From Nitrospiraceae bacterium UBA6898 (GTDB lineage Bacteria > Nitrospirota > Thermodesulfovibrionia > Thermodesulfovibrionales > UBA6898), in NCBI GenBank assembly GCA_002448975.1, contig DKBO01000079.1, forward strand, positions 1 through 42,454: a DNA stretch of 42,454 bases, in the 5' to 3' direction. A model generated the notes under the pieces. It saw only the letters and a list, made by a program, of their open reading frames with translations. It did no database searches and was not told the DNA's origin. Shown piece after piece: positions 4,217 through 38,268 of this stretch (the first letter of the stretch is position 1; every line of letters starts with the position of its first letter). The position numbers and the translations under genes were made by a program.

Positions 4217-4250
4217 ATCATATCTCCATTATATTCATGACGCACCGGTT

Positions 4251-12876: not shown

Positions 12877-13308
12877 TTATTTGTCCTCTTTTACATATTC
12901 CATGAACTGTTTATAGTCCCTGATATAGTCGCTTTTGTCATAATAATCATCAGCCAGGACGAGAATAACGCAATCCCGGGAAAATTTCGTCATGGTATGC
13001 CACAATTTCGGACCCAGACGTATTCCGTAATAGGGACTGTCAATGATGAAGTTCTGTTTCGTCTCCCCATCATCAAGCTGTAAACGAAAGGAGCCGCTTA
13101 AACAGAAGATGTACTGGTCTAACTTCTTATGTGCATGTTTGCCGCGCACCGCTTTCCGGTTTGACAAGTTTGTAATATAATAAATTCTCTTGATCTCGAA
13201 GGGGACACTTTTTCCGGCTTCGCCGATTACCAACGCACCGTCGGGAAAATCGTCATAAAATTGCAGTTTAATTATTCCGGAATGTTTTACTTTTATTTTT
13301 TTGTTCAT
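12877..13308 (-). CDS. FdtA/WxcM-like cupin (NDP-4-keto-6-deoxyhexose 3,4-ketoisomerase-like)
   Basis: 143 aa. PFEIKRIYYITNLSNRKAVRGKHAHKKLDQYIFCLSGSF matches the FdtA-domain His pair region. There is a 1-nt gap to the aminotransferase and a 4-nt overlap with the upstream GT2. Confidence 0.75.
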   Translation of the reverse strand: MNKKIKVKHSGIIKLQFYDDFPDGALVIGEAGKSVPFEIKRIYYITNLSNRKAVRGKHAHKKLDQYIFCLSGSFRLQLDDGETKQNFIIDSPYYGIRLGPKLWHTMTKFSRDCVILVLADDYYDKSDYIRDYKQFMEYVKEDK

Positions 13309-14300
13309 TCTAATGATTTTCCTTGCTCCCTGCTCCCTACCATCATTCTTTTTATTGACTGTAGCCCCTTATATAGAGGGGTATCGTTCAACATATTATA
13401 GACAGGCGAAAGGAAATGATGAGCCGAAGGAAGGTACCGGTAACGAAAACTCTGAAATACGACGCCGTATGCGATAACACGCTTTATCGGCGCTTTAACT
13501 GCCGAGGCTCGTCTATAATTCAGCTGTGCGAAGAATCGCCTGCCTTCTTTTTTTATCAGATGCTTATTTTCTTTTGAAGCCAGATCACACATCAAGTCCA
13601 ACAACATGTGAGAATCTTCACACCATTGTCCAACCTTGACAGAATACGTAATTTCGCCGGGATGGGTTCGAAAGCCCGCCTTGATATCAGCAACGTCCGC
13701 TCTTCCGAATTTTGCTGCCAGTCGGAGCTCGGCCATCACGTCCTGAAAAAGGTTATGCTTTGACTTGAAGCCACCAATCTCTCTTAGCCTCTTCGTATTA
13801 AATAACGTGCTGCAAAGATAGAAGGTTGTCTTATTTGTAAACCATCCCCTGAATAGTTCATCCGTTGTAAATCCGGAAGCCATATTGGGGCAGAGTCGTA
13901 TTGCCTGGCCTTCTGCATCGGTTACTCGCGTGCCCGTTCGTATAAGTCCAACACCGATTTTGTAGTCAGCCGCTTTCATGCAAACGTCTATAAAATCACT
14001 GTCAATCAGATCATCGTCATGCAGAAGTAAGAAATAGTCGCCTTGAGCCTTTTCGAGACAAAAATTGAAGTTATTGTTCGCCCCGATGTTGGTGCTCTGC
14101 CGGAAGTACCGTATGCGCGGGTCATGGAAGCCTTTGACGACCTCTTCGGTGTTATCCGAAGAACAGTTGTCCGAGATCACAACCTCCACCTCCTGATAGG
14201 TCTGGCCCAGTGCGCATTCGATAGCGTTCCGCAGATACCCGTTCGCCCTGTTATACGTAGGAATGGCGATTGTGACTAATGGAAGTGTTTTATCCGTCAT
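13305..14300 (-). CDS. GT2-family glycosyltransferase
   Basis: 331 aa with the motifs VTIAIPTYNRANGYLRNAIECALGQTY, VVISDNCSSDNT and LLLHDDD. Confidence 0.85.
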   Translation of the reverse strand: MTDKTLPLVTIAIPTYNRANGYLRNAIECALGQTYQEVEVVISDNCSSDNTEEVVKGFHDPRIRYFRQSTNIGANNNFNFCLEKAQGDYFLLLHDDDLIDSDFIDVCMKAADYKIGVGLIRTGTRVTDAEGQAIRLCPNMASGFTTDELFRGWFTNKTTFYLCSTLFNTKRLREIGGFKSKHNLFQDVMAELRLAAKFGRADVADIKAGFRTHPGEITYSVKVGQWCEDSHMLLDLMCDLASKENKHLIKKEGRRFFAQLNYRRASAVKAPIKRVIAYGVVFQSFRYRYLPSAHHFLSPVYNMLNDTPLYKGLQSIKRMMVGSREQGKSLE

Positions 14301-19379: not shown

Positions 19380-19400
19380 GTTGCTATTATCTGCAGCTGG

Positions 19401-20165: not shown

Positions 20166-21400
20166 GGCTTTTTCTTACCATTATACCCTGTCCATTCCTC
20201 AAATTGTTCGGCTGGGGTGATATTTTCCACGGACCACGATTCGACGAATTCCCTGGCCTTGCTCCACGTTGGAATAGGTTTCGGGAGATACCATGAGTGT
20301 GCAGATGGAACCGGGACGTCCCATTTGGGAGCTGTGCCATTTTTCCTCTGTCGGCCAAGAATCTCCTTGGAATACCGCCCCAGAGCCCACATGAAAGCTG
20401 CCGAGCATATCAACGAGATGGGATCTCCCAACTCAATCTTGACCCGCCCGTCCGTTCCCATGGGCAGCTGGAAGGGTTTCAGAAGACATTCAACAGTATC
20501 CACATAGCGGACGACCGTCAGCGGGTCAGCATATTTTTGGGCTTGTATTCTCGTCTCAAGGCACTGATTGAGAAACCCCGGGAGATGCGGGTTCCTGCTG
20601 CCAAAGAAAAAAACCGTATTGACTGCCGAGAAATGACCCTTTTGGTATAGATCCGCAATCAACGTACCGTATAACCCTACGTCCAGAATGAGCGTCTGGC
20701 CAAGGGCCAAAGTCCTCGTGAGACGTATTTGTCCATTACGGTATTCATGAAACAGCAGCGGCGATTCGCCTCTGTCGCGCAGAGGCCGCGTGTATACGAG
20801 AAAATTCAGCGGGATGGGATTCTTACCCCTCTGCAATGCACGCAGAGCAGGCCAGAAAAGCAGGGCATCCCTCAAGAAAAGCATCATGCTGTCAACCTTT
20901 CCCTTGCAGCCGGCAGCTAAAGCATCCTCCGCAAAGCCATGGAGAACGGGTAGCAGATAAGATGTGCTGTCCAGATAGCGTCGCACAATCTCAACGAGGA
21001 ATCGCCTCGTCGGAAGACATGCAACTCGGTGATCCTGGATTTGCGCAAAGAGCGCGCTCGAAACAACATAGCCTTCTGCATCGTCTTCCCGGGAGAGATT
21101 CCGATAGAGCAGCGAGAGAAGAGCGCCGGGGTCGGCAGACCCTGTATCCAGGCCGATGTAATTGATGCAGGCGTCCACCAATGATGCCAAGGATTCTGCC
21201 TGATCAGTCAGGGCAAGAAACTGTATCAGATCCGGCAGTCCAACCTCAACGTCCCGGATGATCAAAGCAGGGGGAAGCTGGTCTAAATCGACAGATGAAC
21301 CGCGGTAAAGCAACGGGATGCGCTCACCTGACAATTTTTCCATCTCCGGCAGAAAATCGAGCCGGGATATATCATCTAAAGGTGTACCTAAAATACTCAT
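20162..21400 (-). CDS. hypothetical protein, 412 aa, no motif recognised
   Basis: A long ORF with a 4-nt ATGA overlap with the TrpA-like gene. It is the first gene after the sigma-54 promoter candidate. It has no TM segments or signal peptide, and I could not assign a family by eye. Confidence 0.6.
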   Translation of the reverse strand: MSILGTPLDDISRLDFLPEMEKLSGERIPLLYRGSSVDLDQLPPALIIRDVEVGLPDLIQFLALTDQAESLASLVDACINYIGLDTGSADPGALLSLLYRNLSREDDAEGYVVSSALFAQIQDHRVACLPTRRFLVEIVRRYLDSTSYLLPVLHGFAEDALAAGCKGKVDSMMLFLRDALLFWPALRALQRGKNPIPLNFLVYTRPLRDRGESPLLFHEYRNGQIRLTRTLALGQTLILDVGLYGTLIADLYQKGHFSAVNTVFFFGSRNPHLPGFLNQCLETRIQAQKYADPLTVVRYVDTVECLLKPFQLPMGTDGRVKIELGDPISLICSAAFMWALGRYSKEILGRQRKNGTAPKWDVPVPSAHSWYLPKPIPTWSKAREFVESWSVENITPAEQFEEWTGYNGKKKP

Positions 21401-21732: not shown

Positions 21733-22542
21733 CTACATGAATTCAGCCATCGGATCACAGGTCATATCAGCCCGCATTTTCACCACTCGGGCGGGATTAC
21801 CGAGAGCGATCGCGCCATCCGGAATATCACGTGTGACCACGGAACCTGCGCCGACAACCGCTCCCCTGCCAATCCGGACTCCGCTCAGCACTATTGTCCC
21901 AAAGCCGATCCAGGCCTCATCTTCTATAATGATGGCTCCTTTCGATTGCACAGGCTGCTTGCGGATAGGTTTGTCCGGCAGGACACCATGATCATAGGAA
22001 TAGAAAGCACAGTTTGGCGCAATCATTACGCCGCTGCCGATCTCGACGGGGGCAACATATGCATTCACCTGGCACCGGGGATGAATACTGGAATCGTCTC
22101 CGATTTTCAGATAGCCCCCATGACCTGTTTCGAGAATGGTATCTCTGTATATGTAGACCCGTTCGCCTATTTCGATGGGACCTGCATCCTCTCTCTGAAA
22201 GATTACAACGCGTTCGTCCATGAAAATGTTTTTCCCGAGCCGCAGATCTGAATGATAAATCGTTACGCTCGGTGCAATATACCCTCTCGAATTCATATGA
22301 GCGAGATAAGGCCGTGATTTATGCGGAGGAGCAGGCAAGGCCGCAAATCGCGCTGCCATGCGCCCGAAGAAGCCGACTCCAGCAAACCTCATCCAAAAAC
22401 GCATCCAATACTTCGTCAGGACATTAAGACTGCTTGGGTGCCGATAGGTATTAATGATATAGTGTGCCCTTTTCTGTAAACCCATGTAATTTTCCAGAAC
22501 TTGGTCGATAGATGAAAGCGCAAGGGGAAGGTTGATCTGCAC
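21733..22542 (-). CDS. left-handed beta-helix (hexapeptide-repeat) sugar O-acetyltransferase
   Basis: 269 aa. The C-terminal half holds the hexapeptide repeats IGDDSSIHPRCQV, IGSGVMIAPNCAF, IIEDEAWIGFGTIVLSGVRIGRGAVVGAGSVVTRDIP..AIALGNPARV. The N-terminal extension is about 100 aa. Confidence 0.8.
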   Translation of the reverse strand: MQINLPLALSSIDQVLENYMGLQKRAHYIINTYRHPSSLNVLTKYWMRFWMRFAGVGFFGRMAARFAALPAPPHKSRPYLAHMNSRGYIAPSVTIYHSDLRLGKNIFMDERVVIFQREDAGPIEIGERVYIYRDTILETGHGGYLKIGDDSSIHPRCQVNAYVAPVEIGSGVMIAPNCAFYSYDHGVLPDKPIRKQPVQSKGAIIIEDEAWIGFGTIVLSGVRIGRGAVVGAGSVVTRDIPDGAIALGNPARVVKMRADMTCDPMAEFM

Positions 22543-22551
22543 TATAGCAGG

Positions 22552-23442
22552 TCAACAAACGGATCTGCTTTGCGGGTGCCCCATAAAAATACCCCTCAGA
22601 GAGTTTCCTCCCAAAATGACAAGAATTTTCTGGAACGCCACCCCACTGACCATGGCCAGGCCGGCCAATACAAACAGTGCATCCTGAAGATGCTTGCTCG
22701 CCATTTCATGTAAGCCCGTCAACGGGAGAAGCAGAATTAAGAAGATGCCAGGCACCAGATGCCCCAGGCCCAGAACAACTAAAAGAGACAGGGGATTGCG
22801 GAGAATCGCCGTAGCCGCGCGTAAAGCATGGTTCGCCTGAGGGATCCGCACATAAATACCGTATACAAATAAATTCAGAACCAGACATACAATCCCTGTG
22901 ACAACCATTTGGGTCGAAAATGCCAATCCGCTCAGGCCCGACACGATTAGCAGCAGCCCGCAACCTCCAACAATGCTCGAGGTAAAAAAGCTAATTGGTG
23001 CAAGCGGCACATTCCAGGCTGTCACTGCCCTGGCACGATAGACCATGCAACCCTGGCTTATCACATAGACAAGGACAGCCCCGACAGAGAGCACATGCAG
23101 GAGGGGGTGTGGGAATAGCCAGTTCATCGATGCCAACAAGACAAATACTGTTCCCGACAAAACCTCTCGCGACATCCAGGAACTCTTGAGGTTGCCCAAA
23201 ATGTAAACGCCTCGCAGCGGCCTGCCAGCTTCAAAGGTCATGAAAAGGAATCCCAGGACAATAAGGAGAGGAGACAGCAACATGGATATCATGTCCTGGG
23301 GTTCGCTGAAAGCAATCCCTTCCCGCAAAGATATATCGAAAAAGCGCAGCACGTAAAAGCCCGAAGCCATGCCCCCCATAAAAAAATTAAAAACTGCGGG
23401 CCAGCCCCACACCCTGTATTTTACTGGTTGAATATGTTCCAT
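22552..23442 (-). CDS. NrfD/PsrC/DmsC-family integral membrane quinone-interacting subunit
   Basis: 296 aa and polytopic. It has WGWPAVFNFFMGGMASGFYV and EAGRPLRGVYILGNLKSSWMSREVLSG, which are hallmark NrfD-family blocks. Confidence 0.8.
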   Translation of the reverse strand: MEHIQPVKYRVWGWPAVFNFFMGGMASGFYVLRFFDISLREGIAFSEPQDMISMLLSPLLIVLGFLFMTFEAGRPLRGVYILGNLKSSWMSREVLSGTVFVLLASMNWLFPHPLLHVLSVGAVLVYVISQGCMVYRARAVTAWNVPLAPISFFTSSIVGGCGLLLIVSGLSGLAFSTQMVVTGIVCLVLNLFVYGIYVRIPQANHALRAATAILRNPLSLLVVLGLGHLVPGIFLILLLPLTGLHEMASKHLQDALFVLAGLAMVSGVAFQKILVILGGNSLRGIFMGHPQSRSVC

Positions 23443-23463
23443 GCTCTGTTCCCGCGAATCTGC

Positions 23464-24105
23464 TCAGTCCACAATGTAGTAAACTGAGGGATCAGTTCCT
23501 AATTCCTCCTGGAGTCTGGCTGTTTTTCCCTCGCGCAACAGTTGCGAAACCACACTGTCGGGATCGTCTAAATCGCCAAATCGCATGGCTTTGGCACTGC
23601 AAGAGATCACGCACTGGGGAGAGGCGTCAGCATCCCGACCGGGCCGGCACCCCTTTCTCATGCCATCGGCAATCTTCGGCAGACAGAAATTACATTTGGT
23701 TGCGACACCCACGCGGTCGGGGTTGGTGTCAGACCCACCCAATCCATGAACAATATTCTTCACTTCCAAGTCATATTTGTCGTGAAATATAATACTGCGG
23801 GCTTGATACGGGCAGGCCACAATGCAGTACCCGCACCCTACACAACGCTCATTTCTGATAGCGACTATTCCGTCGGATCTCCGGTGTGAAGCGGCAGTGG
23901 GGCAGACCTCAACACACGGGGCTTTGCCGCAGTGCATACAGCTTATCGGGATAAACGTTCTTATCCTTTCAGGAGTGGGCGATAATCCACAATCAAAAAC
24001 GCGGCGCCAACTATTGACGGGGACCCTGTTTGTCTGCTTGCAGACAATAGTGCAGGCCTTGCATCCGATACACTTTCTCAGGTCAATGACCATTCCCAAC
24101 CGCAA
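23464..24105 (-). CDS. four-cluster 4Fe-4S ferredoxin subunit (PsrB/NrfC/DmsB-type)
   Basis: 213 aa with cysteine groups CIGCKACTIVC, CMHCGKAPCVEVCP, CVGCGYCIVACP and CNFC. There is no twin-arginine leader. Confidence 0.85.
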   Translation of the reverse strand: MRLGMVIDLRKCIGCKACTIVCKQTNRVPVNSWRRVFDCGLSPTPERIRTFIPISCMHCGKAPCVEVCPTAASHRRSDGIVAIRNERCVGCGYCIVACPYQARSIIFHDKYDLEVKNIVHGLGGSDTNPDRVGVATKCNFCLPKIADGMRKGCRPGRDADASPQCVISCSAKAMRFGDLDDPDSVVSQLLREGKTARLQEELGTDPSVYYIVD

Positions 24106-24140
24106 CGTATGTCTCCCTTCACAAAATGCGGCACATCACT

Positions 24141-25781
24141 TCATCCCATGATGCCCTTAATATGATCGGCAAGCCTAATCGCAAGAGCGACGGCAGTAAG
24201 CACCGGATTCGCATAGCCACCCGTCGGGAATAAGGAGGGCCCCGCTATGTATAGATTTGAAGTGTCGTGGACGCGGCAATTTTCATCAACGACTCCTTTT
24301 TTGGGATCCGTGTGAATCCGTGTCGTACCCATGTGATGCCATCCTCCCACAATTTTCGGGATGTCGTTTTCGTCCCTGAGGTCGATCTGCAGGCTGCCAA
24401 GACCGGAGGAACGAACTTCCTCATCCATTATTTCCTGTGCCCTCATAACGCTGCGTATGTCTAAAGGGCTCAATTTCCAGTCCAATCTGACGCGCCTTCG
24501 ACCCAGGGCATCACATTCATCAGAAAGTGATACACGACTATCGGGGTTCGGAATCTGTTCAGTCATTTGATCAAGCTGGTACACGATGACCTTCTTTTGC
24601 TTATGTAAGAAACGCCCGCATCTGCGCAGTGCATTCTTCCGAACAGCTGTGGCTACTCCGCCGAGATTGGCAGCCACATCCTTCAACTGGCCGGTAAAAT
24701 CATCTGGAAGCCGTCCGTCAACCATTACTGACCGAAGAAGCCTGCGTGCCTTGGCCCCTTCAGACTGGTCGGCCTGAAGGGGCAGGTTATCCGGCCGCAC
24801 ACGGGGAAGAATGGAAACGCAATAGTTTGCCAATCTCTCATTTCGCAGCGTATTTTCAGATAGAGTCAATTTCGCCATTATGGGAACGGACTTTGTCTTA
24901 TGGATTCTGTACAGGGCAGTCTCATTATAAGTGTCAGGCCTGTCCGGAAGGTAAAAGCCTGAGTAGAAGTGAAGATGCTCCATAAAAAATCTGCCAACCA
25001 GATCATTTTGATTGCCGATTCCGTCACGCTGCTTCTTGTTCGAAAGTAATAGGAGTCGGGGGGTATCGATTCCTCCCAGCGCCAAAATGTAAAGTTTTGC
25101 TGAAACCCGGAATCTATTGCCCTCCAGGCAGGCCGCATGAATATGCGATACGGTCTGAGCAGCCGTATCCGTCTCCATTTCTACTGCATTGGCGAAAACG
25201 TAAGCACTGATATTCTCTGCCCTTCCAATTTCTTCTCTATAATCATTGAAAAAAGGGTCGCGTGGACCGAACTGGAATATCGCGGTCTTCATCCTTTCCG
25301 AAACAAAGGGAAGTTTGGGGGTTATCTCAGGGTCTTCCCAATCTTCGACCTCGTATGTATAGGGACCTATGCGGCAGACAGAGTGAGCGCGTTCATAAAA
25401 GGGATCAAGATAGGACTTGTCAAAAGGCCATCCGCTGTGCGGGAGCCAGTCACGCTCCTCGAAATCGATCGCGTCCAGGGGCCTCAGACGCACCCCGATA
25501 CGGTTATCCCCCAGTTCAACACTCCACCGATGACTGGACCCACCGAAAGCACAGCCCCGTGCGGTATCAAGCTCATAGTAAGGGAGGCCGACATTTTCTC
25601 CCCAGTAAAGCGACTGTGTTGCCCTGTCAGGTTCAAGTCCGCCGCTTTCCAGAAGACAGACCTTGAATTCTTTTCCTATGAACTCCCTGGCCACAGTAAT
25701 GCCTGCTATACCGGCACCTACGATGCAGACATCAGCCCGGATTGTCTTGTTTGACGGCAATGTACGCGCGTCGATAATCAT
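24141..25781 (-). CDS. GMC-family FAD-dependent oxidoreductase
   Basis: 546 aa. It has an N-terminal DVCIVGAGIAGITVA Rossmann motif and a C-terminal GGWHHMGTTRIHTDPKKGVVDENCRVHDTSNLYIAGPSLFPTGGYANPVLT (GMC_oxred_C-type active-site block). There is no signal peptide. Confidence 0.85.
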   Translation of the reverse strand: MIIDARTLPSNKTIRADVCIVGAGIAGITVAREFIGKEFKVCLLESGGLEPDRATQSLYWGENVGLPYYELDTARGCAFGGSSHRWSVELGDNRIGVRLRPLDAIDFEERDWLPHSGWPFDKSYLDPFYERAHSVCRIGPYTYEVEDWEDPEITPKLPFVSERMKTAIFQFGPRDPFFNDYREEIGRAENISAYVFANAVEMETDTAAQTVSHIHAACLEGNRFRVSAKLYILALGGIDTPRLLLLSNKKQRDGIGNQNDLVGRFFMEHLHFYSGFYLPDRPDTYNETALYRIHKTKSVPIMAKLTLSENTLRNERLANYCVSILPRVRPDNLPLQADQSEGAKARRLLRSVMVDGRLPDDFTGQLKDVAANLGGVATAVRKNALRRCGRFLHKQKKVIVYQLDQMTEQIPNPDSRVSLSDECDALGRRRVRLDWKLSPLDIRSVMRAQEIMDEEVRSSGLGSLQIDLRDENDIPKIVGGWHHMGTTRIHTDPKKGVVDENCRVHDTSNLYIAGPSLFPTGGYANPVLTAVALAIRLADHIKGIMG

Positions 25782-27181: not shown

Positions 27182-28396
27182 TCATCCCCTCAGCGAATTT
27201 CCATGGGCTATTTGAAATTGAATGATGTTATCTACAACTTTGCTGTATTCCTCGGTAAATCTTTCTCTCGTGTGGTTTGTCCTCGCAAATTCCCAGGCGC
27301 TCCTGGCCATCGCCTTGAGTTCTTGCCCTGAGAGATCAGAGATCTCTTTCACTGAATTCTTTATCTCTTCGATGGAGCATTTCTCTAAAATCAAGCCGAA
27401 GCTCCCGTCAACGGCAATGCCACATTCATAACTGATAATAGGAATAAGGCCTGCACGCGAGCAATTTATTACAGCTCCTGACCCGCCTTCTGAACACGAC
27501 GGGCTTATTACCCCGACACAGGTATTTGCAACGTCGAGGAATTTTCGGCCGGCAACGTCAACAAACCCCAGATAATGAATATTGGGAGTTTGAAAAAGCT
27601 CTTTATGATAGGCGTCTGTAAAATCCTTTTCTTCTTCCAGCCTGCCGCAGACATAGAGATGGTAATTCGGCATTTCAGCAAAGGCCTCCAAAAGCAGGTC
27701 CAATCCCTTATGAACCGCTCCAAATCCACTGAAATACAAATAATTTGTCCGGGTGATGTCATAATCTTTATCCTCAGGGAAAGGACACATAATCTGTGAC
27801 GGAATGGGAAGGTAAAACACCGGTCTTTGCGCGATACCGTAAGTGCCGGGAGTAAACTGATTTGCGGAAGTAAGGACTATGTCAGCCACCCCGATGCCTT
27901 TTGTGGGTTGCAGTTGCCTTTTGGGTTTCAAGATCAGCTTTCTTCGCTGCTGCAGTTCTACGTGACGTTTATAATTTGCATAATTATGAAACAGCCAATG
28001 AGCCCAAACTATGAGCAAAACCTTTACGCATTCCTGATTAAGCAATGGCCCTATTCTCTCAAGATTTGAATGCACATCAATGAAAATATTATAGTCTTTT
28101 TCCGGCATGAAACGATCATTCTGGTAGTCGATTACATCTACATTATACCCGCGGTCCAGGAAAGCTTGAGCCATTTCCAAACACTGCCACGCAGAAATAT
28201 GCTTTTCCTTGACCGTCGGATCCAAAAAGGGATCCGCCCTGTAGGATAAAAGGACTTGGCCTGCACACGACTCCTTTGTTCTTAAAGATATGCTTTGCCA
28301 TTTTTCCCTTTCCGCTCTGGAAATTCTTCTGACCTCAATACCGGACTTCTGCAGCGCCTTTTTGATTAATCTCTTCACCACGTTATACCCTTTCAC
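27182..28396 (-). CDS. putative GT-B (GT1/GT4-like) glycosyltransferase
   Basis: 404 aa with YLYFSGFGAVHKGLDLLLEAFAEMPNYHLYVCG and ISPSCSEGGSGAVINCSRAGLIPIIS in the C-terminal donor-domain pattern. Confidence 0.6.
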   Translation of the reverse strand: MKGYNVVKRLIKKALQKSGIEVRRISRAEREKWQSISLRTKESCAGQVLLSYRADPFLDPTVKEKHISAWQCLEMAQAFLDRGYNVDVIDYQNDRFMPEKDYNIFIDVHSNLERIGPLLNQECVKVLLIVWAHWLFHNYANYKRHVELQQRRKLILKPKRQLQPTKGIGVADIVLTSANQFTPGTYGIAQRPVFYLPIPSQIMCPFPEDKDYDITRTNYLYFSGFGAVHKGLDLLLEAFAEMPNYHLYVCGRLEEEKDFTDAYHKELFQTPNIHYLGFVDVAGRKFLDVANTCVGVISPSCSEGGSGAVINCSRAGLIPIISYECGIAVDGSFGLILEKCSIEEIKNSVKEISDLSGQELKAMARSAWEFARTNHTRERFTEEYSKVVDNIIQFQIAHGNSLRG

Positions 28397-28398
28397 CG

Positions 28399-29715
28399 TT
28401 AGCTGTTTTTAACGGACTCCTCGGCGCTGTATGTTGTCGTCCACTTCAGAAGCGGCCTTACTGCCCCACCAATATATTTAGTCCAATCCCCACGCGCGGA
28501 ATCTGGATCCATATCATCGACAACGCGGAACGAGATAGCGTTGTCTTCGATAAAACGGGCGACGAATGGTTGCGGTGTCATCATGGCCGCATGGACAAAT
28601 ATTTCCCCATCAGATAGCAAATTGGCTGGAATCAGCGCGGCACTTATATAACGACCCGCCGGACGAGGACGCTGCCTCCACTCAGGATCGATATCTAAGG
28701 TTGTAAATATCTTCATACCTTCATCATTGTAAAGATTAAAATTGGGCACCAGCCAATTCCCCGGTTGAAGCACCTCATACTCCATTTCCAGACAGAACGA
28801 CTGGTTCGTAAGGACGGTATCAGCAACACTACCTTCTTCTGTTCGCATACGGACAGCGCAGAGGCGTACCGTTTGGTCACCTGGTGCATTGCCAAGTTCG
28901 TTCCATTCCCGGTGGGCTCTTTTTTGCGTTCCTTCGCTTAAATAACTGCTTACAACCGTAATCGGAGGACCGTCCATTACTATTTTCCCGTCTTTCAGTA
29001 AAATAATTCGTTCACATAATCGGCCTATGGAAAGTATGTTATGCGACACGAAGAGGACTGTTCTACCACTTCTCCCAATGTCCTGCATTTTATTGAGACA
29101 TTTCTTCTGAAAGCTCGCATCTCCCACCGCGAGCACCTCATCAACTATCAATATCTCCGGCTCTAAATGTGCCGCGACTGCGAAAGCTAATCTTAAATAC
29201 ATACCACTGGAATAATGCTTTACAGGGGTATCAATGAATTTTTCCACCTCGGCAAATGCCACAATCTCATCAAACTTTCTGCTGATTTCGCCTCTTGTCA
29301 TGCCAAGAATTGCACCGTTAAGGTATATATTTTCCCTTCCAGTCAACTCCTGATGAAATCCGGTACCCACTTCCAATAATGAACCCACCCGGCCCCGTAT
29401 TTCTGCAGATCCTTTTGTTGGCTCAGTAATTCGTGAAAGAATTTTTAATAAGGTGCTTTTGCCTGCTCCATTTCGTCCAATAATGCCTACTACCTCGCCC
29501 TGTTTGACATTAAAGGATACATCTTCAAGTGCCCATATGGATTGGTCTAATTCAGCAGCGCCTGCAGCATGTCCGTGCAATAATTTGCCTGCTTTTCTGA
29601 ATGGTGCAACAAAAGAATCAGCAATAGTATCACGCAGGGTTTTATAGCTTTCCTGTCTTCGACCTATATGATATTGCTTACTTAAATTTTCCACACGGAT
29701 TGCGATATTATTCAT
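28399..29715 (-). CDS. wzt: O-antigen/polysaccharide ABC exporter ATP-binding protein with a C-terminal extension
   Basis: 438 aa with Walker A GRNGAGKST, the LLEVGTGFHQELTGRENIYLNG block typical of Wzt/TagH, signature YSSGM, and Walker B ILIVDE. A C-terminal domain of about 190 aa sits where the Wzt carbohydrate-binding domain would be. Confidence 0.9.
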   Translation of the reverse strand: MNNIAIRVENLSKQYHIGRRQESYKTLRDTIADSFVAPFRKAGKLLHGHAAGAAELDQSIWALEDVSFNVKQGEVVGIIGRNGAGKSTLLKILSRITEPTKGSAEIRGRVGSLLEVGTGFHQELTGRENIYLNGAILGMTRGEISRKFDEIVAFAEVEKFIDTPVKHYSSGMYLRLAFAVAAHLEPEILIVDEVLAVGDASFQKKCLNKMQDIGRSGRTVLFVSHNILSIGRLCERIILLKDGKIVMDGPPITVVSSYLSEGTQKRAHREWNELGNAPGDQTVRLCAVRMRTEEGSVADTVLTNQSFCLEMEYEVLQPGNWLVPNFNLYNDEGMKIFTTLDIDPEWRQRPRPAGRYISAALIPANLLSDGEIFVHAAMMTPQPFVARFIEDNAISFRVVDDMDPDSARGDWTKYIGGAVRPLLKWTTTYSAEESVKNS

Positions 29716-29881
29716 TGGTCTTGGTTTATCCTCTCGGTTCTTTGTTTCACGTTTACGGAGAAAGGTACTTATTAAATGTCCCTGCCTCGGACGGCCGGCC
29801 GTCTCCGTTCACCACCCTTGTTTTGAACATCAGATCGAAGTCTATTCCCGGTCGGCTTCCTGTTAAGAAAGTAATTGCACG

Positions 29882-30175: not shown

Positions 30176-30277
30176 CCGAGGTAAACCTATTCATTATCAT
30201 CATTGTGCAGCTGTGCCATGTATTTTAGTTTTATTTACCGGGTACAATAAAAACACTATAGCACGCCGCCTCCGGCG

Positions 30278-31132
30278 CTAGACCACATCTGCGAAGGTCT
30301 TTTCCAGCCGTCTGAAATAGAACAATCCACTTACGAGTAATGCCAGCGCAACACCCGAAGACATCCATATCGTAGAACCGGGGGCGGTATCCGTCGCGAG
30401 GAGCGCCCACCGAAACCCCTCGACCACGCCAACCATGGGGTTAATCGCATAGATCGTTCTCCAGGGTTCGCTCAGGAGACTGCTCGGGTAGGCAATAGGC
30501 GTTGCAAAGAACCATAGTTGTGTTATGAAGGGAATGATATGCTGCACGTCTCTGAATTGTACGTTCATTGCGGAAAGCCACAAGGAAACTCCCAACGCCG
30601 TCACTAATGCGAGCAGCAGGAAGAAAGGCAAAAACATAACATTGATCGTCGGTACAATACCAAAATATAGCGTCATGCCAATAAGGGTAATAAGGGCCAG
30701 GACGAAGTCCAATATCCCGGAGAGAACATTTGCTATCGGGATAGCAAGACGGGGAAAATAGACTTTTTTGATCAGGTTTGAACTGCTGACAAGACTATTA
30801 GATGCCTTGCTCAATCCGTTCGCGAAAAAAGTCCAGGGCACAAGGGCAGCAAAACTGAAGATGGGATAGGGCACTCCGTCAGAGGGTATTTTTGCCAGAC
30901 GGCCAAAGAAGAGGCTGAAGACAACCATGGTCATGAAGGGTTGAATAATGGCCCAGGCAGCCCCCAGGACCGTCTGTTTGTAACGGATTTTGATATCTCG
31001 CCAGACGAGAAAATAAAGGAGTTCCTTGTATTCCCACAATTCTCTCAGTTTAAGGGAAACCCACCCACGGGAAGGTTCGATGCGGATTATCGGAATGTCG
31101 ATTTGAGCAGCGTTAACAGTATCTTTTTCCAT
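30278..31132 (-). CDS. wzm: O-antigen/polysaccharide ABC exporter permease (ABC-2 type)
   Basis: WRDIKIRYKQTVLGAAWAIIQPFMTMVVFSLFFG plus six hydrophobic segments. I chose the ATG at 31132 (MEKDTV...) because GAAAGG lies 5-6 nt upstream. The longer ORF to 31207 runs into a pseudogene fragment. Confidence 0.85.
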   Translation of the reverse strand: MEKDTVNAAQIDIPIIRIEPSRGWVSLKLRELWEYKELLYFLVWRDIKIRYKQTVLGAAWAIIQPFMTMVVFSLFFGRLAKIPSDGVPYPIFSFAALVPWTFFANGLSKASNSLVSSSNLIKKVYFPRLAIPIANVLSGILDFVLALITLIGMTLYFGIVPTINVMFLPFFLLLALVTALGVSLWLSAMNVQFRDVQHIIPFITQLWFFATPIAYPSSLLSEPWRTIYAINPMVGVVEGFRWALLATDTAPGSTIWMSSGVALALLVSGLFYFRRLEKTFADVV

Positions 31133-31204
31133 AGACCCTTTCTTTCTGTTGTGATGTCCTTTCGGATGTATGAGAATCCCGGCTTTGCTCTGCCCCAAGC
31201 CGGT

Positions 31205-31375
31205 CACACAGTCTGTTCTCAGGCAACTCCACGCGGCAAGTAAGCACCCGATCCTTTGCAGTGTTCCGTTTCAGATGGCGCCCCTCGGCCAAGCCCCTTG
31301 GAGGCAGCATTCGGAGTAAACTGTCTCGGAGTTCTGACACTGACCATAGATCATCACGACGCGCTTTCATGATCC
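31205..31375 (-). pseudogene. frameshifted C-terminal fragment of a SAF-type dehydrogenase, paralogous to 33202-33390
   Basis: The fragment translates as MIYGQCQNSETV, then a frameshift, then LLRMLPPRGLAEGRHLKRNTAKDRVLTCRVELPENRLCDRLGAEQ. The intact gene reads YMTYGQCENSDAVKGERLLPMGLAEGCRLKKDISRDHVLTYDDVDLPDNRLCDRLRAEQ. The DNA is alignable, for example gtcacacag(t/c)ctgtt and gagttctg(a/c)cactgaccatag(a/g)tcat. Confidence 0.75.
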
Positions 31376-32451: not shown

Positions 32452-33227
32452 TGTGCAACAAAGACGGCATTCCTGTTTTCGAGGAATAATACGAAAAGGA
32501 TGAGAATACAGATCAGAATCACGAGCGGCAGAATTATCTTTGAAATCAGCTTTCTCGGTCCGGCCGGCATGACATAATGCACCCGCATCTGTGAAGCGTG
32601 TCTGAGCGGAGCTTTCTTTTTCATGCCCCCCGGCGGTTGAACTGAGACGGGTCTCTTCCGCATGAACTTTCTGTCATATTCCATTCTCTTTCCAGTATCT
32701 TTCAGAACACTATAAACCTCGTTGATTTTGCTCGTACAGCTGACCCAGTTGCCCCCATCACTACGGTGCCTGTCAGGGTGGTAGAGCATCATGAGGCTCT
32801 TCCAGCGATCATGGATCTGGTCAGCCGTTACATTATGGGGCAGCCCCAGGGTGAAATAGTAATCATTCTCGGGATTGAAATATACCCTGTCGAGAATCTT
32901 GTTCAGGTTATCAATCACATAACTCCGATCTATACTGCTCTGAGCCAGGAAACTCTTTGCCCCCGGCGCATCACCCAAGAGATCGATAAAGGCATCGAAA
33001 TTCCTGACAACCTTTATGCTGAATCGCTCCCAGGAAATACCACCCCTAACTTCCCCAATAAATTCAAGGGCATCCTGGTAGTTCACTTGCTTTTTCCCAT
33101 TGTCATGCCGGGATTTCATTCCTTCGTCTGGCCTGTCTTTGCAGATTCGGTCACAATAGACTGTCGGTGAGGCACCCTGTATGTTTCCCCTGAAGAAGAA
33201 CTTATCTCCGGCCAAAAAACAGTTCAT
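32448..33227 (-). CDS. J-domain (DnaJ-like) protein with a C-terminal transmembrane anchor
   Basis: The J-domain is DYYFTLGLPHNVTADQIHDRWKSLMMLYHPDRH...INEVYSVLKDTGKRMEYD, with the HPD tripeptide. The C-terminal hydrophobic helix is ISKIILPLVILICILILFVLFL. The start is uncertain: ATG at 33227 or 33119. The 33296 start would overlap the upstream gene by 95 nt. Confidence 0.7.
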   Translation of the reverse strand: MNCFLAGDKFFFRGNIQGASPTVYCDRICKDRPDEGMKSRHDNGKKQVNYQDALEFIGEVRGGISWERFSIKVVRNFDAFIDLLGDAPGAKSFLAQSSIDRSYVIDNLNKILDRVYFNPENDYYFTLGLPHNVTADQIHDRWKSLMMLYHPDRHRSDGGNWVSCTSKINEVYSVLKDTGKRMEYDRKFMRKRPVSVQPPGGMKKKAPLRHASQMRVHYVMPAGPRKLISKIILPLVILICILILFVLFLENRNAVFVAQ

Positions 33228-34503
33228 TCTGTTCCGCTCGCAGCCTGTCACACAGCCTGTTGTCCGGCAGATCCACATCATCATAGGTAAGCACATGATC
33301 CCGGGAAATATCTTTCTTTAGGCGGCATCCTTCAGCAAGCCCCATGGGGAGCAGTCTCTCGCCCTTAACCGCATCCGAGTTCTCGCACTGACCATAGGTC
33401 ATATAGTAGCCCATGCCATCAAGCACCTGCCCGGCCTTTAGATCTATCTTCGCGGTAGCCACAACATCGACTAACGGTTTGCCAAGCGGTGCGATGGCTG
33501 CGTCGTGGAAGAGCGCAGCCCTGGCAATAGTATTGTGTACCTCAAAGTGGCAGAGATGATAGGGGGTATAGAAACAATAAAGTGGGCCTTCGCCCAGCTT
33601 GTAGAGGTTCAGGTAGTGTTTCTGCATCGGGTGATCATGCGTACCAAGAACAAATACCCCCGGCCCGGGCTCAGCGCCGACTACATAGTCAACGACCCCG
33701 GGGCCTGACAAAAGATCCTCGAGAGGATACCAGGAAACCGCTTCCTTGATGGCAGTTCCTGCCGGCACCGTCGGTCCGTGCATGCCCCGCTTCGCCACCC
33801 TCATTCCCGTAGCATTCGCCACGATAGCCTGTTCAAAGGAGATCTTGGTTCCGTCGGCAAAAGACGTGACCATGTGCGCTTTCTGTCCCCACTTTCGTGC
33901 AAACCCCTCCTGGGTTGTCGGGTTGCGATAGGGGTCCTGAAGACCCTTTATGTTTCCGCACAAAACAGGGCGAACGCCGATCCCTTTGACAAAACGGTAC
34001 AGGTTCATGATTACGCCGGGTTGATCTCCGTCTGCATTCGTCAGAACAACCCCCGCCTTATCAGCATACACCTTCAATACAGGGCCTATTGTTCCGTCAA
34101 GTTCGGCATTCATCATAACGACATGCTTTCCGTGCTCGATCGCTTTCAGCACTACTTCGGCTCCAAACTCAATAGCACCCGTCACTTCGATAACAGCGTC
34201 TATACCGTCGGCTTTGCAGAGAGCCAATGCATCTTCAGTTACCGCGTAATCACCTTTGCTTATCGCCTCCTCCATCTGGGCTACCGTTTCAACGGTTTGT
34301 GTTCTTTCGATGCCCGCCTCGGCATATGCCCGGCGAGCACCTTCGAGATGCCGGTTGGCGATAGCTACCAATTTCATCCCCGGCACATAATTGCATATCT
34401 GTAACGCTATCCCCCTCCCCATAAATCCGGCTCCGATCATGCCGACACGGACAGGGGTCCCGGCTGCATGAAGCTTCTGCAATGCTGTATCAAGAATGAT
34501 CAT
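33202..34503 (-). CDS. NAD(P)-dependent oxidoreductase with a C-terminal SAF-like domain (predicted homoserine-dehydrogenase-like family)
   Basis: 433 aa. It has an N-terminal VRVGMIGAGFMGRGIA Rossmann motif and a C-terminal KAGQVLDGMGYYMTYGQ block. Confidence 0.65.
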   Translation of the reverse strand: MIILDTALQKLHAAGTPVRVGMIGAGFMGRGIALQICNYVPGMKLVAIANRHLEGARRAYAEAGIERTQTVETVAQMEEAISKGDYAVTEDALALCKADGIDAVIEVTGAIEFGAEVVLKAIEHGKHVVMMNAELDGTIGPVLKVYADKAGVVLTNADGDQPGVIMNLYRFVKGIGVRPVLCGNIKGLQDPYRNPTTQEGFARKWGQKAHMVTSFADGTKISFEQAIVANATGMRVAKRGMHGPTVPAGTAIKEAVSWYPLEDLLSGPGVVDYVVGAEPGPGVFVLGTHDHPMQKHYLNLYKLGEGPLYCFYTPYHLCHFEVHNTIARAALFHDAAIAPLGKPLVDVVATAKIDLKAGQVLDGMGYYMTYGQCENSDAVKGERLLPMGLAEGCRLKKDISRDHVLTYDDVDLPDNRLCDRLRAEQNELFFGRR

Positions 34504-34651: not shown

Positions 34652-35182
34652 TCACAGAGAATAATCAGGCCAGCTTCTGTCCTTGTCTGAAATAACCTGA
34701 ACTGCAAGCGGCCAATGTACCCGGAAGGCCGGGTCGTCATACCGTATTCCGCGTTCCGAACCCGGCGTATAAAACTGCGAAACCTGATAAATGACCTCCG
34801 TCTCGTCAACAAGCGTCTGAAACCCATGGGCAAATTTTTCCGGGACATAGAGCATCATATAATTGCCTGCTGTCAGTTCAACCCCGATCCATTGCTTGAA
34901 GGTCGGAGAACCGGGCCTGACGTCGATGATGACATCATATATGGCGCCTCTGGTGCACCTTACCAGTTTTACCTCTCCGTAAGGGTCCGCCTGATAGTGC
35001 ATACCGCGCAGGGTTCCCTTCTTCTTATTGAAGGATACGTTCGCCTGGGATACATTGCTGTTCAGTCCGTACTTCTCAAATTCCTTCTGACAGAACGTCC
35101 GCCCGAAAAAACCACGGTCATCTTCAAATTTCTGTATCTCAATTACATACGCGTCCTTCAGTTTTGTTTCAGTGAAAATCAT
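34652..35182 (-). CDS. NDP-4-keto-6-deoxyhexose 3,5-epimerase-like cupin (RmlC/RfbC family)
   Basis: MIFTETKLKDAYVIEIQKFEDDRGFFGRTF, LRGMHYQ, KLVRCTRGAIYDVIIDVR and YVPEKFAHGF. The start at 35182 is preferred because AAGGAG lies 8 nt upstream. The longer ORF extends to 35269. Confidence 0.85.
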   Translation of the reverse strand: MIFTETKLKDAYVIEIQKFEDDRGFFGRTFCQKEFEKYGLNSNVSQANVSFNKKKGTLRGMHYQADPYGEVKLVRCTRGAIYDVIIDVRPGSPTFKQWIGVELTAGNYMMLYVPEKFAHGFQTLVDETEVIYQVSQFYTPGSERGIRYDDPAFRVHWPLAVQVISDKDRSWPDYSL

Positions 35183-35244
35183 CTCATTCTCCTTATGCTT
35201 ATTTTGCGGTTCCGCAGAACGGCTGCAGCATTTTTCTCCTATAA

Positions 35245-36303
35245 TCAGAATGCCTTTCTGTGTGCCCACTCCAGCCGGTCATTCAAGAGATGCATGTTTC
35301 TGAGATGGGTAAGCATCTTGAGTCGCATAAATCTGGAGTTACGGAAATCACCGTCGCTGAAACCCATGCCTTCCAATCCCTCCTTAAGATCACGGATCGT
35401 CGTGATAAGGTCGACTTCCGGCTGATAACCCGGAGCGAGCTGTCGGAAGAGATTGAAGTTTACCCGGTAAGAACGTTTATCCGGCTGTGCATCCTTATTT
35501 ATAGAGATGTCCACGTCAGGTATGACCTTTGCAACAGCTTCCGCAAGGTCCTTGACCTGATAGTTCCACGCGTCGCTCCCTACATTGACCGCAACGAAGG
35601 CCCCCCCCTTGCCGGTATCCCGCGTCACTGCCCAATCGATTGCACGCGCCATGTCCTTGGTATTGATCAGCGGTCTCCAGGGAGTACCGTCACTGAGGAT
35701 CGTGATTTTCTTCGACATGACCGCCCCGGTAACAAAATCATTCAGAACAAGGTCGAGGCGAAGCCTCTCGCTCATGCCACAGGCCGTGGAAAATCTGAGA
35801 CTGGTTACTTTGAAATTTTCCGTTGCCATCGCTTCCAGGTCCCTCTCGGTATAAACCTTTGATTTTGCATATGCCGTAAGCGGGTTGAGCGGAGATCTCT
35901 CATCCCGCGGACTGTCGTCAGCTGATCCGTACATACTGCAGCTCGATGCAAAGACAAAAGACCGAACCCCTTTTTCCTTGGCTTTTTTCGCAAGGTCCAC
36001 ACTCGCCCGATGGTTAATGTCAAAGGTGACTTCTTCAAAGGTATTGCCCATCGGGTCGTTCGAGATGCCGGCAAGGTGCACAACAGCGTCTACGCCGTCC
36101 AGCAACTCTGCGGGAAGCTTTCTGACATCGGCAAAATACTGCTGATCAACCCGGCATTCGGGAAGGACCTCAGCGTTGGTCAGACAGTTTGCAAAGTACC
36201 CCGTGTCGAAGCCTGCAAGCGTTGCGGCAGGATATGAAAAACGCAGCCTTTCCACAACGCATGGTCCAATGTATCCCATATTACCGGTAACTAAGATTTT
36301 CAT
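35245..36303 (-). CDS. extended-SDR NAD-dependent sugar epimerase/dehydratase family protein
   Basis: MKILVTGNMGYIGPCVV (Rossmann motif) and YAKSK (catalytic YxxxK). The start at 36303 has GGGAG upstream. It lacks the GHTGFKGSW signature I associate with CDP-glucose 4,6-dehydratase. Confidence 0.8.
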   Translation of the reverse strand: MKILVTGNMGYIGPCVVERLRFSYPAATLAGFDTGYFANCLTNAEVLPECRVDQQYFADVRKLPAELLDGVDAVVHLAGISNDPMGNTFEEVTFDINHRASVDLAKKAKEKGVRSFVFASSCSMYGSADDSPRDERSPLNPLTAYAKSKVYTERDLEAMATENFKVTSLRFSTACGMSERLRLDLVLNDFVTGAVMSKKITILSDGTPWRPLINTKDMARAIDWAVTRDTGKGGAFVAVNVGSDAWNYQVKDLAEAVAKVIPDVDISINKDAQPDKRSYRVNFNLFRQLAPGYQPEVDLITTIRDLKEGLEGMGFSDGDFRNSRFMRLKMLTHLRNMHLLNDRLEWAHRKAF

Positions 36304-36366
36304 ATGCGGTTCTCCCTCATGCGTCTTATTTTTTTCCAGCAACCACTATCACGAGATGCCTTTGCC

Positions 36367-37500: not shown

Positions 37501-38268
37501 TCACCACTTTCTCCATGGAGCCTTTCCGCAATCCCACATCTCTTCCAAAACGTTCTTGTCCCTCAGCGTGTCCATGGGGTGCCAGAACCCGTAATGACGA
37601 TATGCGGAGAGCATATCATTCTGTGCAAGCCTTTTTAGCGGCTCCTGCTCCCATACGCTGGCGTCATCGTCTATGAAATCAATCACTTGCGGTTCGAGCA
37701 CAAAATATCCTCCATTGATCCAAGCTCCATCTCCCTGCGGCTTCTCCCGGAAATTGACGACCTTGTCCTTTTCCAGGCTGAGTATTCCAAACCTGCCCGG
37801 TGGTTGAACAGCTGTCAAGGTAGCATAGGTTTTCTGCCCCTTATGAAAGGTTATCAACTGACTGATATCAACATCGCTGACTCCGTCACCATAGGTAAAG
37901 CAGAAGGTTTCCGATCCTATGTAATCCTTCACTCTTTTCAATCTGCCGCCGGTCATGGTCTTCTCGCCGGTGTCGACGAGTGTCACCTTCCAGGGATCCG
38001 CACCGTTCGTGTGAACGCTCATCCTGTTCTCTTTCATATCGAACGTGATATCCGACACCTGCAGGAAATATTGGGAAAAATACTGTTTGATCATATATCC
38101 CTTGTACCCGCAGCATATGATGAAGTCATTGATCCCGTATGTTGAAAAGATCTTCATAATATGCCAAAGGATCGGCTTTCCCCCGATTTCGACCATTGGC
38201 TTCGGCCGAACAGACGTCTCCTCCGAAAGCCTTGTCCCGTAGCCACCCGCAAGAATAACCGCTTTCAT
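37501..38268 (-). CDS. rfbF: glucose-1-phosphate cytidylyltransferase
   Basis: 255 aa. [57 protein letters not shown] matches RfbF/DdhA closely. GAGGTG lies upstream as the RBS. Confidence 0.85.

Follow-up and report, generated by a model that had tools for sequence, protein, structure and literature searches.

The locus

The contig DKBO01000079.1 of Nitrospiraceae bacterium UBA6898 (GenBank assembly GCA_002448975.1), analysed over its 42,454 nucleotides (nt) and referred to here as the window, is over its entire 42 kb a single co-directional glycan locus. It encodes family 4 and family 2 glycosyltransferases (GT4, GT2), a Wzy_C-type protein, a UDP-GlcNAc 2-epimerase, a Polysacc_synt_2 protein, a glucose-1-phosphate cytidylyltransferase, RmlC, a short-chain dehydrogenase/reductase (SDR) and a Wzm/Wzt transporter, together with a sigma-54 regulator. 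Embedded in this locus are three adjacent genes for a flavin adenine dinucleotide (FAD) oxidoreductase of the GMC family, an iron-sulphur ferredoxin (FeS subunit) and an NrfD-like membrane protein (the anchor), in the following termed the triad (Table 1), whose probable role as a membrane-bound dehydrogenase in glycan tailoring is discussed here.

The open reading frames (ORFs) of the triad lie exactly where a preliminary description of this DNA had placed them, with 35 nt between the GMC and the FeS gene and 21 nt between the FeS and the NrfD-like gene. The flanking gaps measure 2 nt (Wzt to GT4), 4 nt (GT4 to a 433-amino-acid (aa) protein), 94 nt (433-aa protein to GMC) and 9 nt (NrfD-like gene to a hexapeptide acyltransferase). 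The FeS ORF has 213 aa when read from a TTG start, and public gene callers use an ATG at 24093, four codons later, which yields 209 aa. A scan for sigma-70 promoters and terminators between 18 and 33 kb gave counts at the level of shuffled sequence and was uninformative, and the Rfam scan of the whole window returned no match.

According to Pfam and NCBIfam scans, no ORF of the window holds a molybdopterin domain (PF00384). The earlier statement that no ORF of molybdopterin-subunit size exists in the window is literally incorrect, given two large ORFs of 1213 aa (a LamG/GDSL-type, probably secreted protein) and 693 aa (a Polysacc_synt_2 dehydratase); in substance it stands.

The three proteins of the triad

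Profile searches against Pfam and NCBIfam bear out the identities proposed for the three proteins. The GMC protein matches GMC_oxred_C (PF05199) with an E-value of 9e-22 and 78.6 bits, the Pfam cut-off being 24.6, and its N-terminus (DVCIVGAGIAG...LLESGG) shows the GxGxxG FAD-binding motif followed by an acidic residue, with weak DAO and Pyr_redox_2 matches over residues 17-48. GMC_oxred_N (PF00732) finds no match in the window protein at E<=0.01 and weak ones in some homologues; the predicted fold is still full-length GMC-like. In an alignment of 39 homologues (53-77% identical), residues G22, G24, G27 and E45 of the FAD fold are invariant, and so are H482 (GGWHHMGT) and N525 (GGYANP), which probably constitute the His/Asn catalytic pair typical of pyranose oxidase-type GMC enzymes, as judged by motif position and not by superposition. 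C19 is the sole invariant cysteine in this alignment. An AlphaFold2 (AF2) model with a predicted local distance difference test (pLDDT) score of 81.5 has its best fold matches in the PDB, covering the whole length at a probability of 1.0, with the fructose dehydrogenase subunit FdhL of Gluconobacter and the alpha subunit of the FAD-dependent glucose dehydrogenase (FAD-GDH) of Burkholderia cepacia (E 1e-27 to 1e-23), followed by pyranose 2-oxidases and a C-glycoside oxidase. The enzymes that this model suggests as the closest structural relatives all oxidise sugar hydroxyls.

The FeS subunit matches Fer4_11 and related 4Fe-4S dicluster families of Pfam. Its best NCBIfam similarities, to DsrO, QrcC, NrfC, ArrB and TtrB (1e-47 to 1e-37), all stay under the equivalog cut-offs, and the protein belongs to no named NCBIfam equivalog; the matches to the DsrO and NrfC profiles start past the region of their twin-arginine translocation (Tat) leaders. 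The closest solved relatives are ArrB (6cz7_B, 1.4e-36) and PsrB (2vpw_B, 9.5e-32). All 16 ligand cysteines, arranged in four groups, are invariant in 24 orthologues.

The third protein matches the Pfam families DmsC (5e-10, 39.6 bits; cut-off 22.3) and NrfD (1e-8, 35.5 bits; cut-off 25.8), and an hhalign comparison with Escherichia coli NrfD gave 93% probability at an E-value of 3e-7. Eight hydrophobic segments were recognised; transmembrane segments were called at a lowered threshold together with 48 homologues, the default threshold missing helix 3 of the window protein. The anchor is presumably haem-free. A loop with the motif EAGRPLRG...SWMSRE is close to invariant among its homologues, which at 50% identity fall into 281 clusters of one subfamily (E <=1e-30). 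Natural fusions of FeS subunit and anchor occur in several organisms (P0131, P0155, P0159 and P0164, of about 500 aa; also at loci L010, L020 and L024). In these, the ferredoxin is N-terminal to the anchor and the protein starts directly at the first cluster motif, with no leader. The existence of both functions on one polypeptide argues for a physical association of the two subunits.

Conservation of the gene order

GMC homologues number in the thousands. A GMC-seeded census, restricted to one genome per species, yielded 546 relatives, and the best 80 of the 546 loci were analysed. Where the GMC protein is at least 47% identical to that of the window, the FeS gene follows it directly in 23 of 28 loci, and in most of those 23 the NrfD-like gene and then a hexapeptide acyltransferase gene come next. 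These loci are spread over Desulfobacterota, Nitrospirota, Nitrospinota, Chloroflexota, Bacteroidota and Verrucomicrobiota. Less similar GMC proteins, with identities under about 44% (Gemmatimonadaceae, Mucilaginibacter, cyanobacteria and others), fall into a clade of their own and lack all of these neighbours. The reciprocal census, a metagenome scan seeded from a narrow NrfD-like alignment, provided 25 loci with enough upstream DNA, 22 of which have GMC directly upstream of the FeS-NrfD pair, and the order is kept even around NrfD-like homologues of 31-46% identity. Seen from both directions, the GMC gene is syntenic with the pair, as anticipated, and the order GMC-FeS-NrfD recurs in dozens of unrelated contigs, far beyond chance.

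The triad belongs to a larger conserved cassette composed of cytidine diphosphate (CDP)-sugar genes, a DRL-like oxidoreductase, Wzm/Wzt, the 433-aa PP-loop-like protein, the hexapeptide acyltransferase and a GT2. An association with polysaccharide loci, suggested beforehand, holds for every locus examined. Within the cassette, FeS and NrfD follow GMC rather than other genes: FeS stands directly after GMC also in the rearranged loci L021 and L049, and the adjacency persists in loci without a PP-loop-like gene (L018, L020, L021, L023, L031).

The preliminary description had further named a constant molybdopterin or cytochrome partner of homologous triads as a finding that would speak against its reading. 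Neither kind of partner turned up in the window or at 27 further loci with GMC and FeS genes: no molybdopterin domain was found in ORFs of at least 560 aa from 22 further triad loci, and among 477 non-overlapping ORFs just 3 carry the cytochrome c motif CxxCH, two of the three being the FeS protein itself. No small gene of the Gluconate_2-dh3 type was found in the triad.

Orientation of the complex

None of 120 GMC homologues carries a Tat or Sec signal at its N-terminus, and in 109 of the 120 the GxGxxG motif is at residue 22. A leader peptide is equally missing from the 24 FeS orthologues, each of which has no more than a few residues ahead of its first cluster motif. In the anchor of the window, lysine and arginine residues number 13 on the loops of the N-terminal side versus 3 on the opposite side, and a bias to the N-terminal side is present in 48 of 48 homologues (means 18.2 versus 3.1); the E. 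coli proteins DmsC (4 versus 8) and NrfD (6 versus 13), taken as controls with periplasmic termini, have the reverse bias. The anchor is, thus, predicted to have both termini in the cytoplasm (N-in/C-in); the conserved EAGRPLRG...SWMSRE loop and the FeS subunit would lie on that side as well. The charge bias disagrees with the classical anchor topology, in which the termini and the FeS partner are on the periplasmic (P) side of the membrane. In short, the leaderless GMC and FeS families, the leaderless FeS-NrfD fusions and the inverted positive-inside bias all support the earlier suggestion of leaderless soluble subunits in a cytoplasm-facing complex. The same inversion has been proposed for SoeC of the SoeABC complex in a review of the NrfD family (PMC8076601).

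An arrangement as in Psr, Nrf and Dms, with the soluble subunits exported to the periplasm on some further Tat carrier and the glycan modified after its export, is extremely unlikely. PsrB and ArrB are devoid of a Tat signal of their own and hitch-hike on their catalytic subunit, and the N-terminus of ArrB (MRLGMVIDL) resembles that of the FeS protein of the window. The sole candidate carrier here, however, would be the GMC protein, which is leaderless in all homologues inspected, and both the immediate start of the fusions at the first cluster motif and the N-in charge bias, opposite to that of the E. coli controls, speak against it.

The predicted cytoplasmic orientation also bears on the idea that the triad oxidises a free sugar or polyol in catabolism or respiration and is placed in a glycan locus by chance or for scavenging, which we hold to be very unlikely. 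It can draw on the nearest structural relatives of the GMC protein, which are respiratory sugar dehydrogenases, and on the architecture of the triad, which is that of a respiratory enzyme. Respiratory sugar dehydrogenases are, however, periplasmic; moreover, the triad is found between exporter and transferases in essentially every locus, throughout six phyla, and genes for sugar uptake or catabolism do not recur beside it.

Exchange of the catalytic head and loss of the anchor

Two exceptions in the NrfD-seeded census, L109 and L116, are informative with regard to the role of the GMC protein. At these loci, the same FeS/NrfD subfamily is found after a molybdopterin oxidoreductase (PF00384, 5e-27 and 6.6e-28, respectively) instead of after a GMC gene. 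The molybdopterin enzyme is Psr/Phs/Arr-like, remains under every NCBIfam cut-off, and shows no Tat leader at its N-terminus (MAEIRKVPEYCYQC in L109, MATTKVPEYCYQC in L116). The L109 anchor has the inverted charge bias (20 versus 1) and nests among GMC-linked anchors in a distance tree. Since a molybdopterin subunit takes the place of GMC, the GMC position is that of the catalytic head, and it can be filled by either a GMC or a molybdopterin subunit on one and the same module with a cytoplasm-facing anchor. This head swap is the strongest available argument for GMC as the catalytic head of the complex.

Conversely, cassettes with GMC and without FeS/NrfD exist in a gammaproteobacterium (L032) and at L014, L027 and L029, all of which are still glycan loci. 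At L014 (11611-13527) and L027 (11107-12786), a NodU/CmcH-type carbamoyltransferase follows GMC and replaces the hexapeptide enzyme. No other redox partner was found in these FeS-less cassettes, where the neighbours are carbamoyltransferases, GT4s, a GDP-mannose dehydratase and Wzz. FeS and NrfD, therefore, have the character of an electron-sink module that a GMC enzyme of a glycan pathway may have or do without.

These observations can be set against an alternative in which FeS and NrfD serve a different enzyme of the cassette, such as the cysteine-rich PP-loop-like protein, or one encoded elsewhere, with GMC as an independent oxidase that happens to be adjacent. Four invariant cysteines of the PP-loop-like protein could hold a cluster, the interface between GMC and FeS subunit is a presumed one, and GMC enzymes do occur without the pair. 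We, nevertheless, assign this alternative a low probability, considering that FeS always comes right after GMC, including in rearranged loci and in those without a PP-loop-like gene, and that a molybdopterin catalytic subunit is directly upstream of the same FeS/NrfD subfamily at L109 and L116.

Several points weigh against GMC as the head of a quinone-reducing complex. Contact of the GMC protein with the FeS subunit and the identity of the substrate are both points that we infer. FeS-linked and FeS-less GMC proteins do not differ by an insertion and have the same region lengths, so that no FeS-docking signature was found in this comparison; 6 positions are all that separates the FeS-linked proteins from the distant GMC clade. 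With one invariant cysteine in the GMC protein, direct electron transfer from the FAD to the first cluster in a separate subunit would be required, whereas characterised membrane-bound FAD sugar dehydrogenases hand electrons on via a 3Fe-4S cluster of their own. The NrfD-like protein, the predicted quinone binder, is divergent, with neither an NCBIfam nor a PDB sequence match, and the trees, simple ones built from distances by neighbour joining, carry no support values.

Proposed mechanism

On balance, we consider it reasonably likely that the triad is a cytoplasm-facing, quinone-reducing sugar dehydrogenase engaged in the tailoring of a glycan precursor or intermediate. The three genes would give rise to one membrane-bound enzyme with the build of a respiratory dehydrogenase and a use in glycan biosynthesis. 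The cytoplasmic GMC subunit would oxidise a hydroxyl group of a sugar that is either a CDP-activated precursor or part of a glycan intermediate bound to polyprenol on the inner side of the membrane; the substrate may, hence, be nucleotide- or lipid-linked and the product a keto-sugar or a uronic acid. The FAD would hand two electrons to the PsrB/NrfC-type subunit, whose four [4Fe-4S] clusters would lead them to a quinone site in the inverted NrfD-type anchor, with quinone as the presumed acceptor. FAD oxidation of secondary alcohols or aldehydes is exergonic towards menaquinone or ubiquinone. Because substrate oxidation and quinone reduction would take place on the same side of the membrane, no energy conservation is expected, i.e., the enzyme would not form a redox loop; its role would be that of an oxygen-independent electron sink for the re-oxidation of the flavin. 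The product of the cassette as a whole would be a modified glycan that is exported to the cell surface. PsrB-type subunits are known as electron wires from a catalytic head to an NrfD-type quinone site (PMC8076601).

A participation of the FeS protein in an E1/E3-type CDP-sugar deoxygenation was considered and rejected, as GMC and PsrB-type proteins are unrelated to the pyridoxamine phosphate (PMP)/[2Fe-2S] enzyme E1 and to the FNR-like E3, a judgement made from knowledge of the families only.

Electrons might also run in the reverse direction, from quinol via NrfD and FeS to a flavoprotein that reduces a keto- or enoyl-sugar, in the same way as fumarate reductase relates to succinate dehydrogenase. 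Known PsrB/NrfD modules operate in both directions (PMC8076601), and the cassette contains 4-keto-sugar-type enzymes (RmlC-like, SDR) which need a reduction step. This is, however, a distinctly unlikely option for the triad: the close structural relatives of the GMC protein all oxidise alcohols or sugars, the oxidative His/Asn pair is present, the DRL-like NAD(P) oxidoreductase of the cassette could already be the reductase, and a reductase would be left with no electron donor in the FeS-less cassettes, whereas an oxidase can use O2.

Returning to the oxidative dehydrogenase, a bolder version of it appears possible but rather unlikely. The triad would represent a new and widespread NrfCD-anchored class in which a flavoprotein replaced a Tat-less molybdopterin head and, together with the co-inherited RmlC-like and DRL-like enzymes, would form a DprE1/DprE2-like "oxidise, epimerise, reduce" route. 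In this version, which relies on analogy, GMC would produce the keto-sugar with no 4,6-dehydration step, either on a CDP-hexose or on a lipid-linked residue, and deliver the electrons to quinone; the RmlC-like and DRL-like proteins would then complete an L-hexose or an epimeric sugar, to be followed by acylation and export through Wzm/Wzt.

Comparison with known systems

A system close to the triad in its membrane module is the sulfite:quinone oxidoreductase SoeABC, which combines a PsrB-type four-cluster subunit with an NrfD-type anchor, is free of Tat signals and delivers electrons to quinone; a cytoplasm-facing arrangement with an inverted anchor has been proposed for it (PMC8076601). SoeABC differs in possessing a molybdopterin head and in using sulfite as a substrate, whereas the triad has a GMC head, is part of a glycan locus and remains under the NCBIfam cut-offs. 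The Psr, Phs, Arr, Ttr and Dms systems share with the triad an FeS subunit of the ArrB/PsrB kind (1e-36 to 1e-32) and an anchor of the NrfD/DmsC family; in their classical form they include a molybdopterin subunit and have the opposite, periplasmic orientation. Without a molybdopterin subunit, the triad falls outside the complex iron-sulphur molybdoenzymes (CISM) by their defining feature.

From the side of the flavoprotein, the triad can be compared with FdhSCL of Gluconobacter and the gamma-alpha-beta complex of B. cepacia FAD-GDH, in which sugar oxidation by a flavoprotein is likewise coupled to the respiratory chain. Both are periplasmic and are composed of a small subunit on which the complex hitch-hikes through the Tat pathway, a multihaem cytochrome c subunit and a flavoprotein with a 3Fe-4S cluster. 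In contrast, the triad is predicted to be cytoplasmic, and it is not a membrane FAD sugar dehydrogenase of this type, since cytochrome c, the small Tat subunit and an internal 3Fe-4S motif are all missing from it.

Two further systems follow the same logic with different parts. In complex II (succinate:quinone oxidoreductase) and the anaerobic glycerol-3-phosphate dehydrogenase GlpABC, a cytoplasmic flavoprotein passes electrons to an FeS subunit, and these continue to quinone at the membrane anchor; none of the three parts is homologous to those of the triad, which would be an independent assembly from GMC, PsrB-type and NrfD-type components. DprE1, of the mycobacterial decaprenylphosphoryl-ribose 2'-epimerase DprE1/DprE2, belongs to the vanillyl-alcohol-oxidase fold family; it is not homologous to the GMC protein and lacks FeS or membrane subunits. 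In envelope glycan synthesis, it oxidises a hydroxyl of lipid-linked ribose to a keto group, with menaquinone or O2 as the oxidant of its reduced FAD; the last step of the epimerisation falls to an NAD(P)H reductase (PMC11841060). The GMC and DRL-like pair could work in a manner analogous to DprE1/DprE2.

In the current view, NrfC/NrfD-type modules serve energy metabolism, as adaptors for heads of the molybdopterin, NiFe-hydrogenase or cytochrome c kind. Among the 14 complexes covered by the 2021 review of the NrfD family, none has a flavoprotein head (PMC8076601), and full-text searches of the literature returned no publication in which a GMC enzyme is connected to an NrfD or DmsC subunit. 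The earlier remark that no characterised example exists is, thus, upheld as far as published descriptions are concerned, and tempered by the partial precedents of SoeABC for the orientation and of DprE1 for the concept. What is found here is a known anchor module with a new head in a new biological setting, its inverted orientation and the quinone-linked oxidation of an envelope sugar having precedents. Taken as a whole, the preliminary reading of the triad as a quinone-coupled flavoprotein dehydrogenase acting on a glycan intermediate is supported, and none of the three contrary findings that could be looked for was obtained; the chemistry and the flow of electrons to quinone are what we infer from these data.

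A biosynthetic glycan locus with a flavoprotein head extends the NrfCD module in two respects, the kinds of head that it carries and its biological role, and an anchor pair shared between molybdopterin and GMC heads is a clear case of modular evolution. GMC enzymes usually depend on O2 or cytochromes, and the triad suggests how they can function in strict anaerobes. If the quinone dependence is true, envelope biogenesis would be tied to the redox state of the membrane; if the oxidise-epimerise-reduce route applies, surface-glycan synthesis in anaerobes would depend on the respiratory quinone pool. The cassette is mostly found in uncultured Desulfobacterota, Nitrospirota, Chloroflexota and others; being widespread and uncharacterised, and including an unannotated PP-loop-like family, it points to an unknown, conserved sugar modification.

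The glycan cassette and neighbouring genes

Table 1. Genes of the triad and of the surrounding cassette in the window. Fractions refer to 28 triad loci, in which the triad genes themselves are present in 28/28 (GMC), 28/28 (FeS) and 22/28 (NrfD-like) cases.
Feature	Position	Strand	Evidence and proposed role
GMC-family FAD oxidoreductase, 546 aa	24141..25781	-	Pfam GMC_oxred_C and N-terminal FAD Rossmann motif; proposed catalytic head
PsrB/NrfC/DsrO-type ferredoxin with four [4Fe-4S] motifs, 213 aa	23464..24105	-	Pfam, NCBIfam and PDB matches; proposed electron wire
NrfD/DmsC-family 8-helix membrane subunit, 296 aa	22552..23442	-	Pfam DmsC and NrfD; proposed quinone site, predicted N-in/C-in (inverted)
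Hexapeptide-repeat acyltransferase	21733..22542	-	Pfam Hexapep; conserved cassette member; 21/28
Uncharacterised PP-loop-like protein, 433 aa	25876..27177	-	conserved cassette member, often a tandem duplicate; 18/28
GT4-type glycosyltransferase	27182..28396	-	Glycos_transf_1, 3e-9
Wzt-type ABC transporter ATPase with C-terminal Wzt_C domain	28399..29715	-	22/28
Wzm-type ABC-2 permease	30278..31207	-	20/28
DRL-like (DXR-II-like) NAD(P) oxidoreductase	33202..34503	-	DRL_cat, 2.9e-56; 16/28
RmlC-type 3,5-epimerase	34652..35269	-	TIGR01221 rmlC, 6e-54, above cut-off; 12/28
SDR epimerase/dehydratase	35245..36342	-	Pfam Epimerase, 3.8e-40; 4/28
Glucose-1-phosphate cytidylyltransferase	37501..38268	-	TIGR02623, 3e-138, above cut-off; 9/28
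GT2 glycosyltransferase	13305..14300	-	homologues recur downstream of the cassette; 13/28

Of the cassette members outside the triad (Table 1), the DRL-like oxidoreductase is the strongest non-transport partner of GMC in terms of co-occurrence. At three basal loci (L033, 1678-4744; L034, 8019-11650; L042, 3-2060), which derive from metagenome-assembled genomes of Salinibacter, Bacteroidetes and Actinomycetota, it is directly beside GMC and the rest of the cassette is absent, which suggests that these two enzymes are the functional core. Among the DXR-II-like oxidoreductases (DLO), two clades of unknown function have been described (PMC3847144).

The 433-aa protein had been labelled a PP-loop enzyme. 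It has no Pfam, NCBIfam or PDB sequence match, and a profile search of the PDB gave noise; a PP-loop assignment is putative and is based on the motif S125-G-G-I-D-S, which is invariant or nearly so (S125-G-G-x-D129 being invariant), and on the fold matches of its AF2 model (pLDDT 88.9), which are weak (asparagine synthetase, TtuA, TilS and GMP synthase, E 5e-3 to 0.2). The family has more than 1000 homologues, all unnamed or "hypothetical", and its invariant cysteines are C299, C312, C315 and C318. Tandem paralogues are frequent (e.g., L002, 4380-6946; L004, 5494-7966), and in the window the GT4 gene occupies the place of the second paralogue. For the enzyme described earlier as an O-acetyltransferase, membership of the hexapeptide acyltransferases is confirmed; in NCBIfam it resembles NeuD/PglB/VioB, WbbJ and WcaF without reaching a cut-off, and it may be an O- or an N-acetyltransferase.

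With regard to export, L088 has a Wzx-type flippase (Polysacc_synt; 2855-4303) at the Wzm/Wzt position, between the DRL-like and the PP-loop-like genes, and the cassette is, consequently, not bound to one export route. The gap of 562 nt between wzm and wzt in the window (29716-30277) contains no convincing ORF and has no Rfam match; in two other lineages, a 23S_rRNA_IVP (PF05635) gene is located at the corresponding position (L002, 2422-2805; L087, 2843-3202). Between wzm and the DRL-like gene (31445-33296, minus strand), there are genes for a DnaJ-domain protein and a PHP phosphatase of the CpsB/CapC type (1e-52), for which the window showed no cognate tyrosine kinase of the CpsC/CpsD type.

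Immediately downstream of the cassette (18672-21400, minus strand) are genes for TrpF-like (phosphoribosylanthranilate isomerase, PRAI) and TrpA-like TIM-barrel proteins and for a 412-aa protein without a family match, none of which has a homologue in the other loci examined. A very large, probably secreted protein with GDSL/SGNH lipase-acylhydrolase, Laminin_G/PKD and related domains (14384-18025, minus strand) recurs near the cassette (L011, 2-2125; L018, 4136-8455; L020, 19678-21399; L026, 14838-16646; L091, 7845-11015) and may act on the glycan after its export, as an esterase or acyltransferase outside the cytoplasm.

Finally, the molybdopterin-containing loci (L109, 1-5065; L116, 1894-6948) apparently encode an uncharacterised, Tat-less and cytoplasm-facing CISM, with hemerythrin, DUF123, SDR and 2-oxoacid dehydrogenase E1 genes as neighbours of the molybdopterin enzyme in L116. 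Immediately upstream of the cassette in L087 (1-1710), a Gluconate_2-dh3 small subunit gene and a split GMC_oxred_N/C gene make up a GMC system of the classical periplasmic type, so that both GMC architectures are present side by side in one genome.

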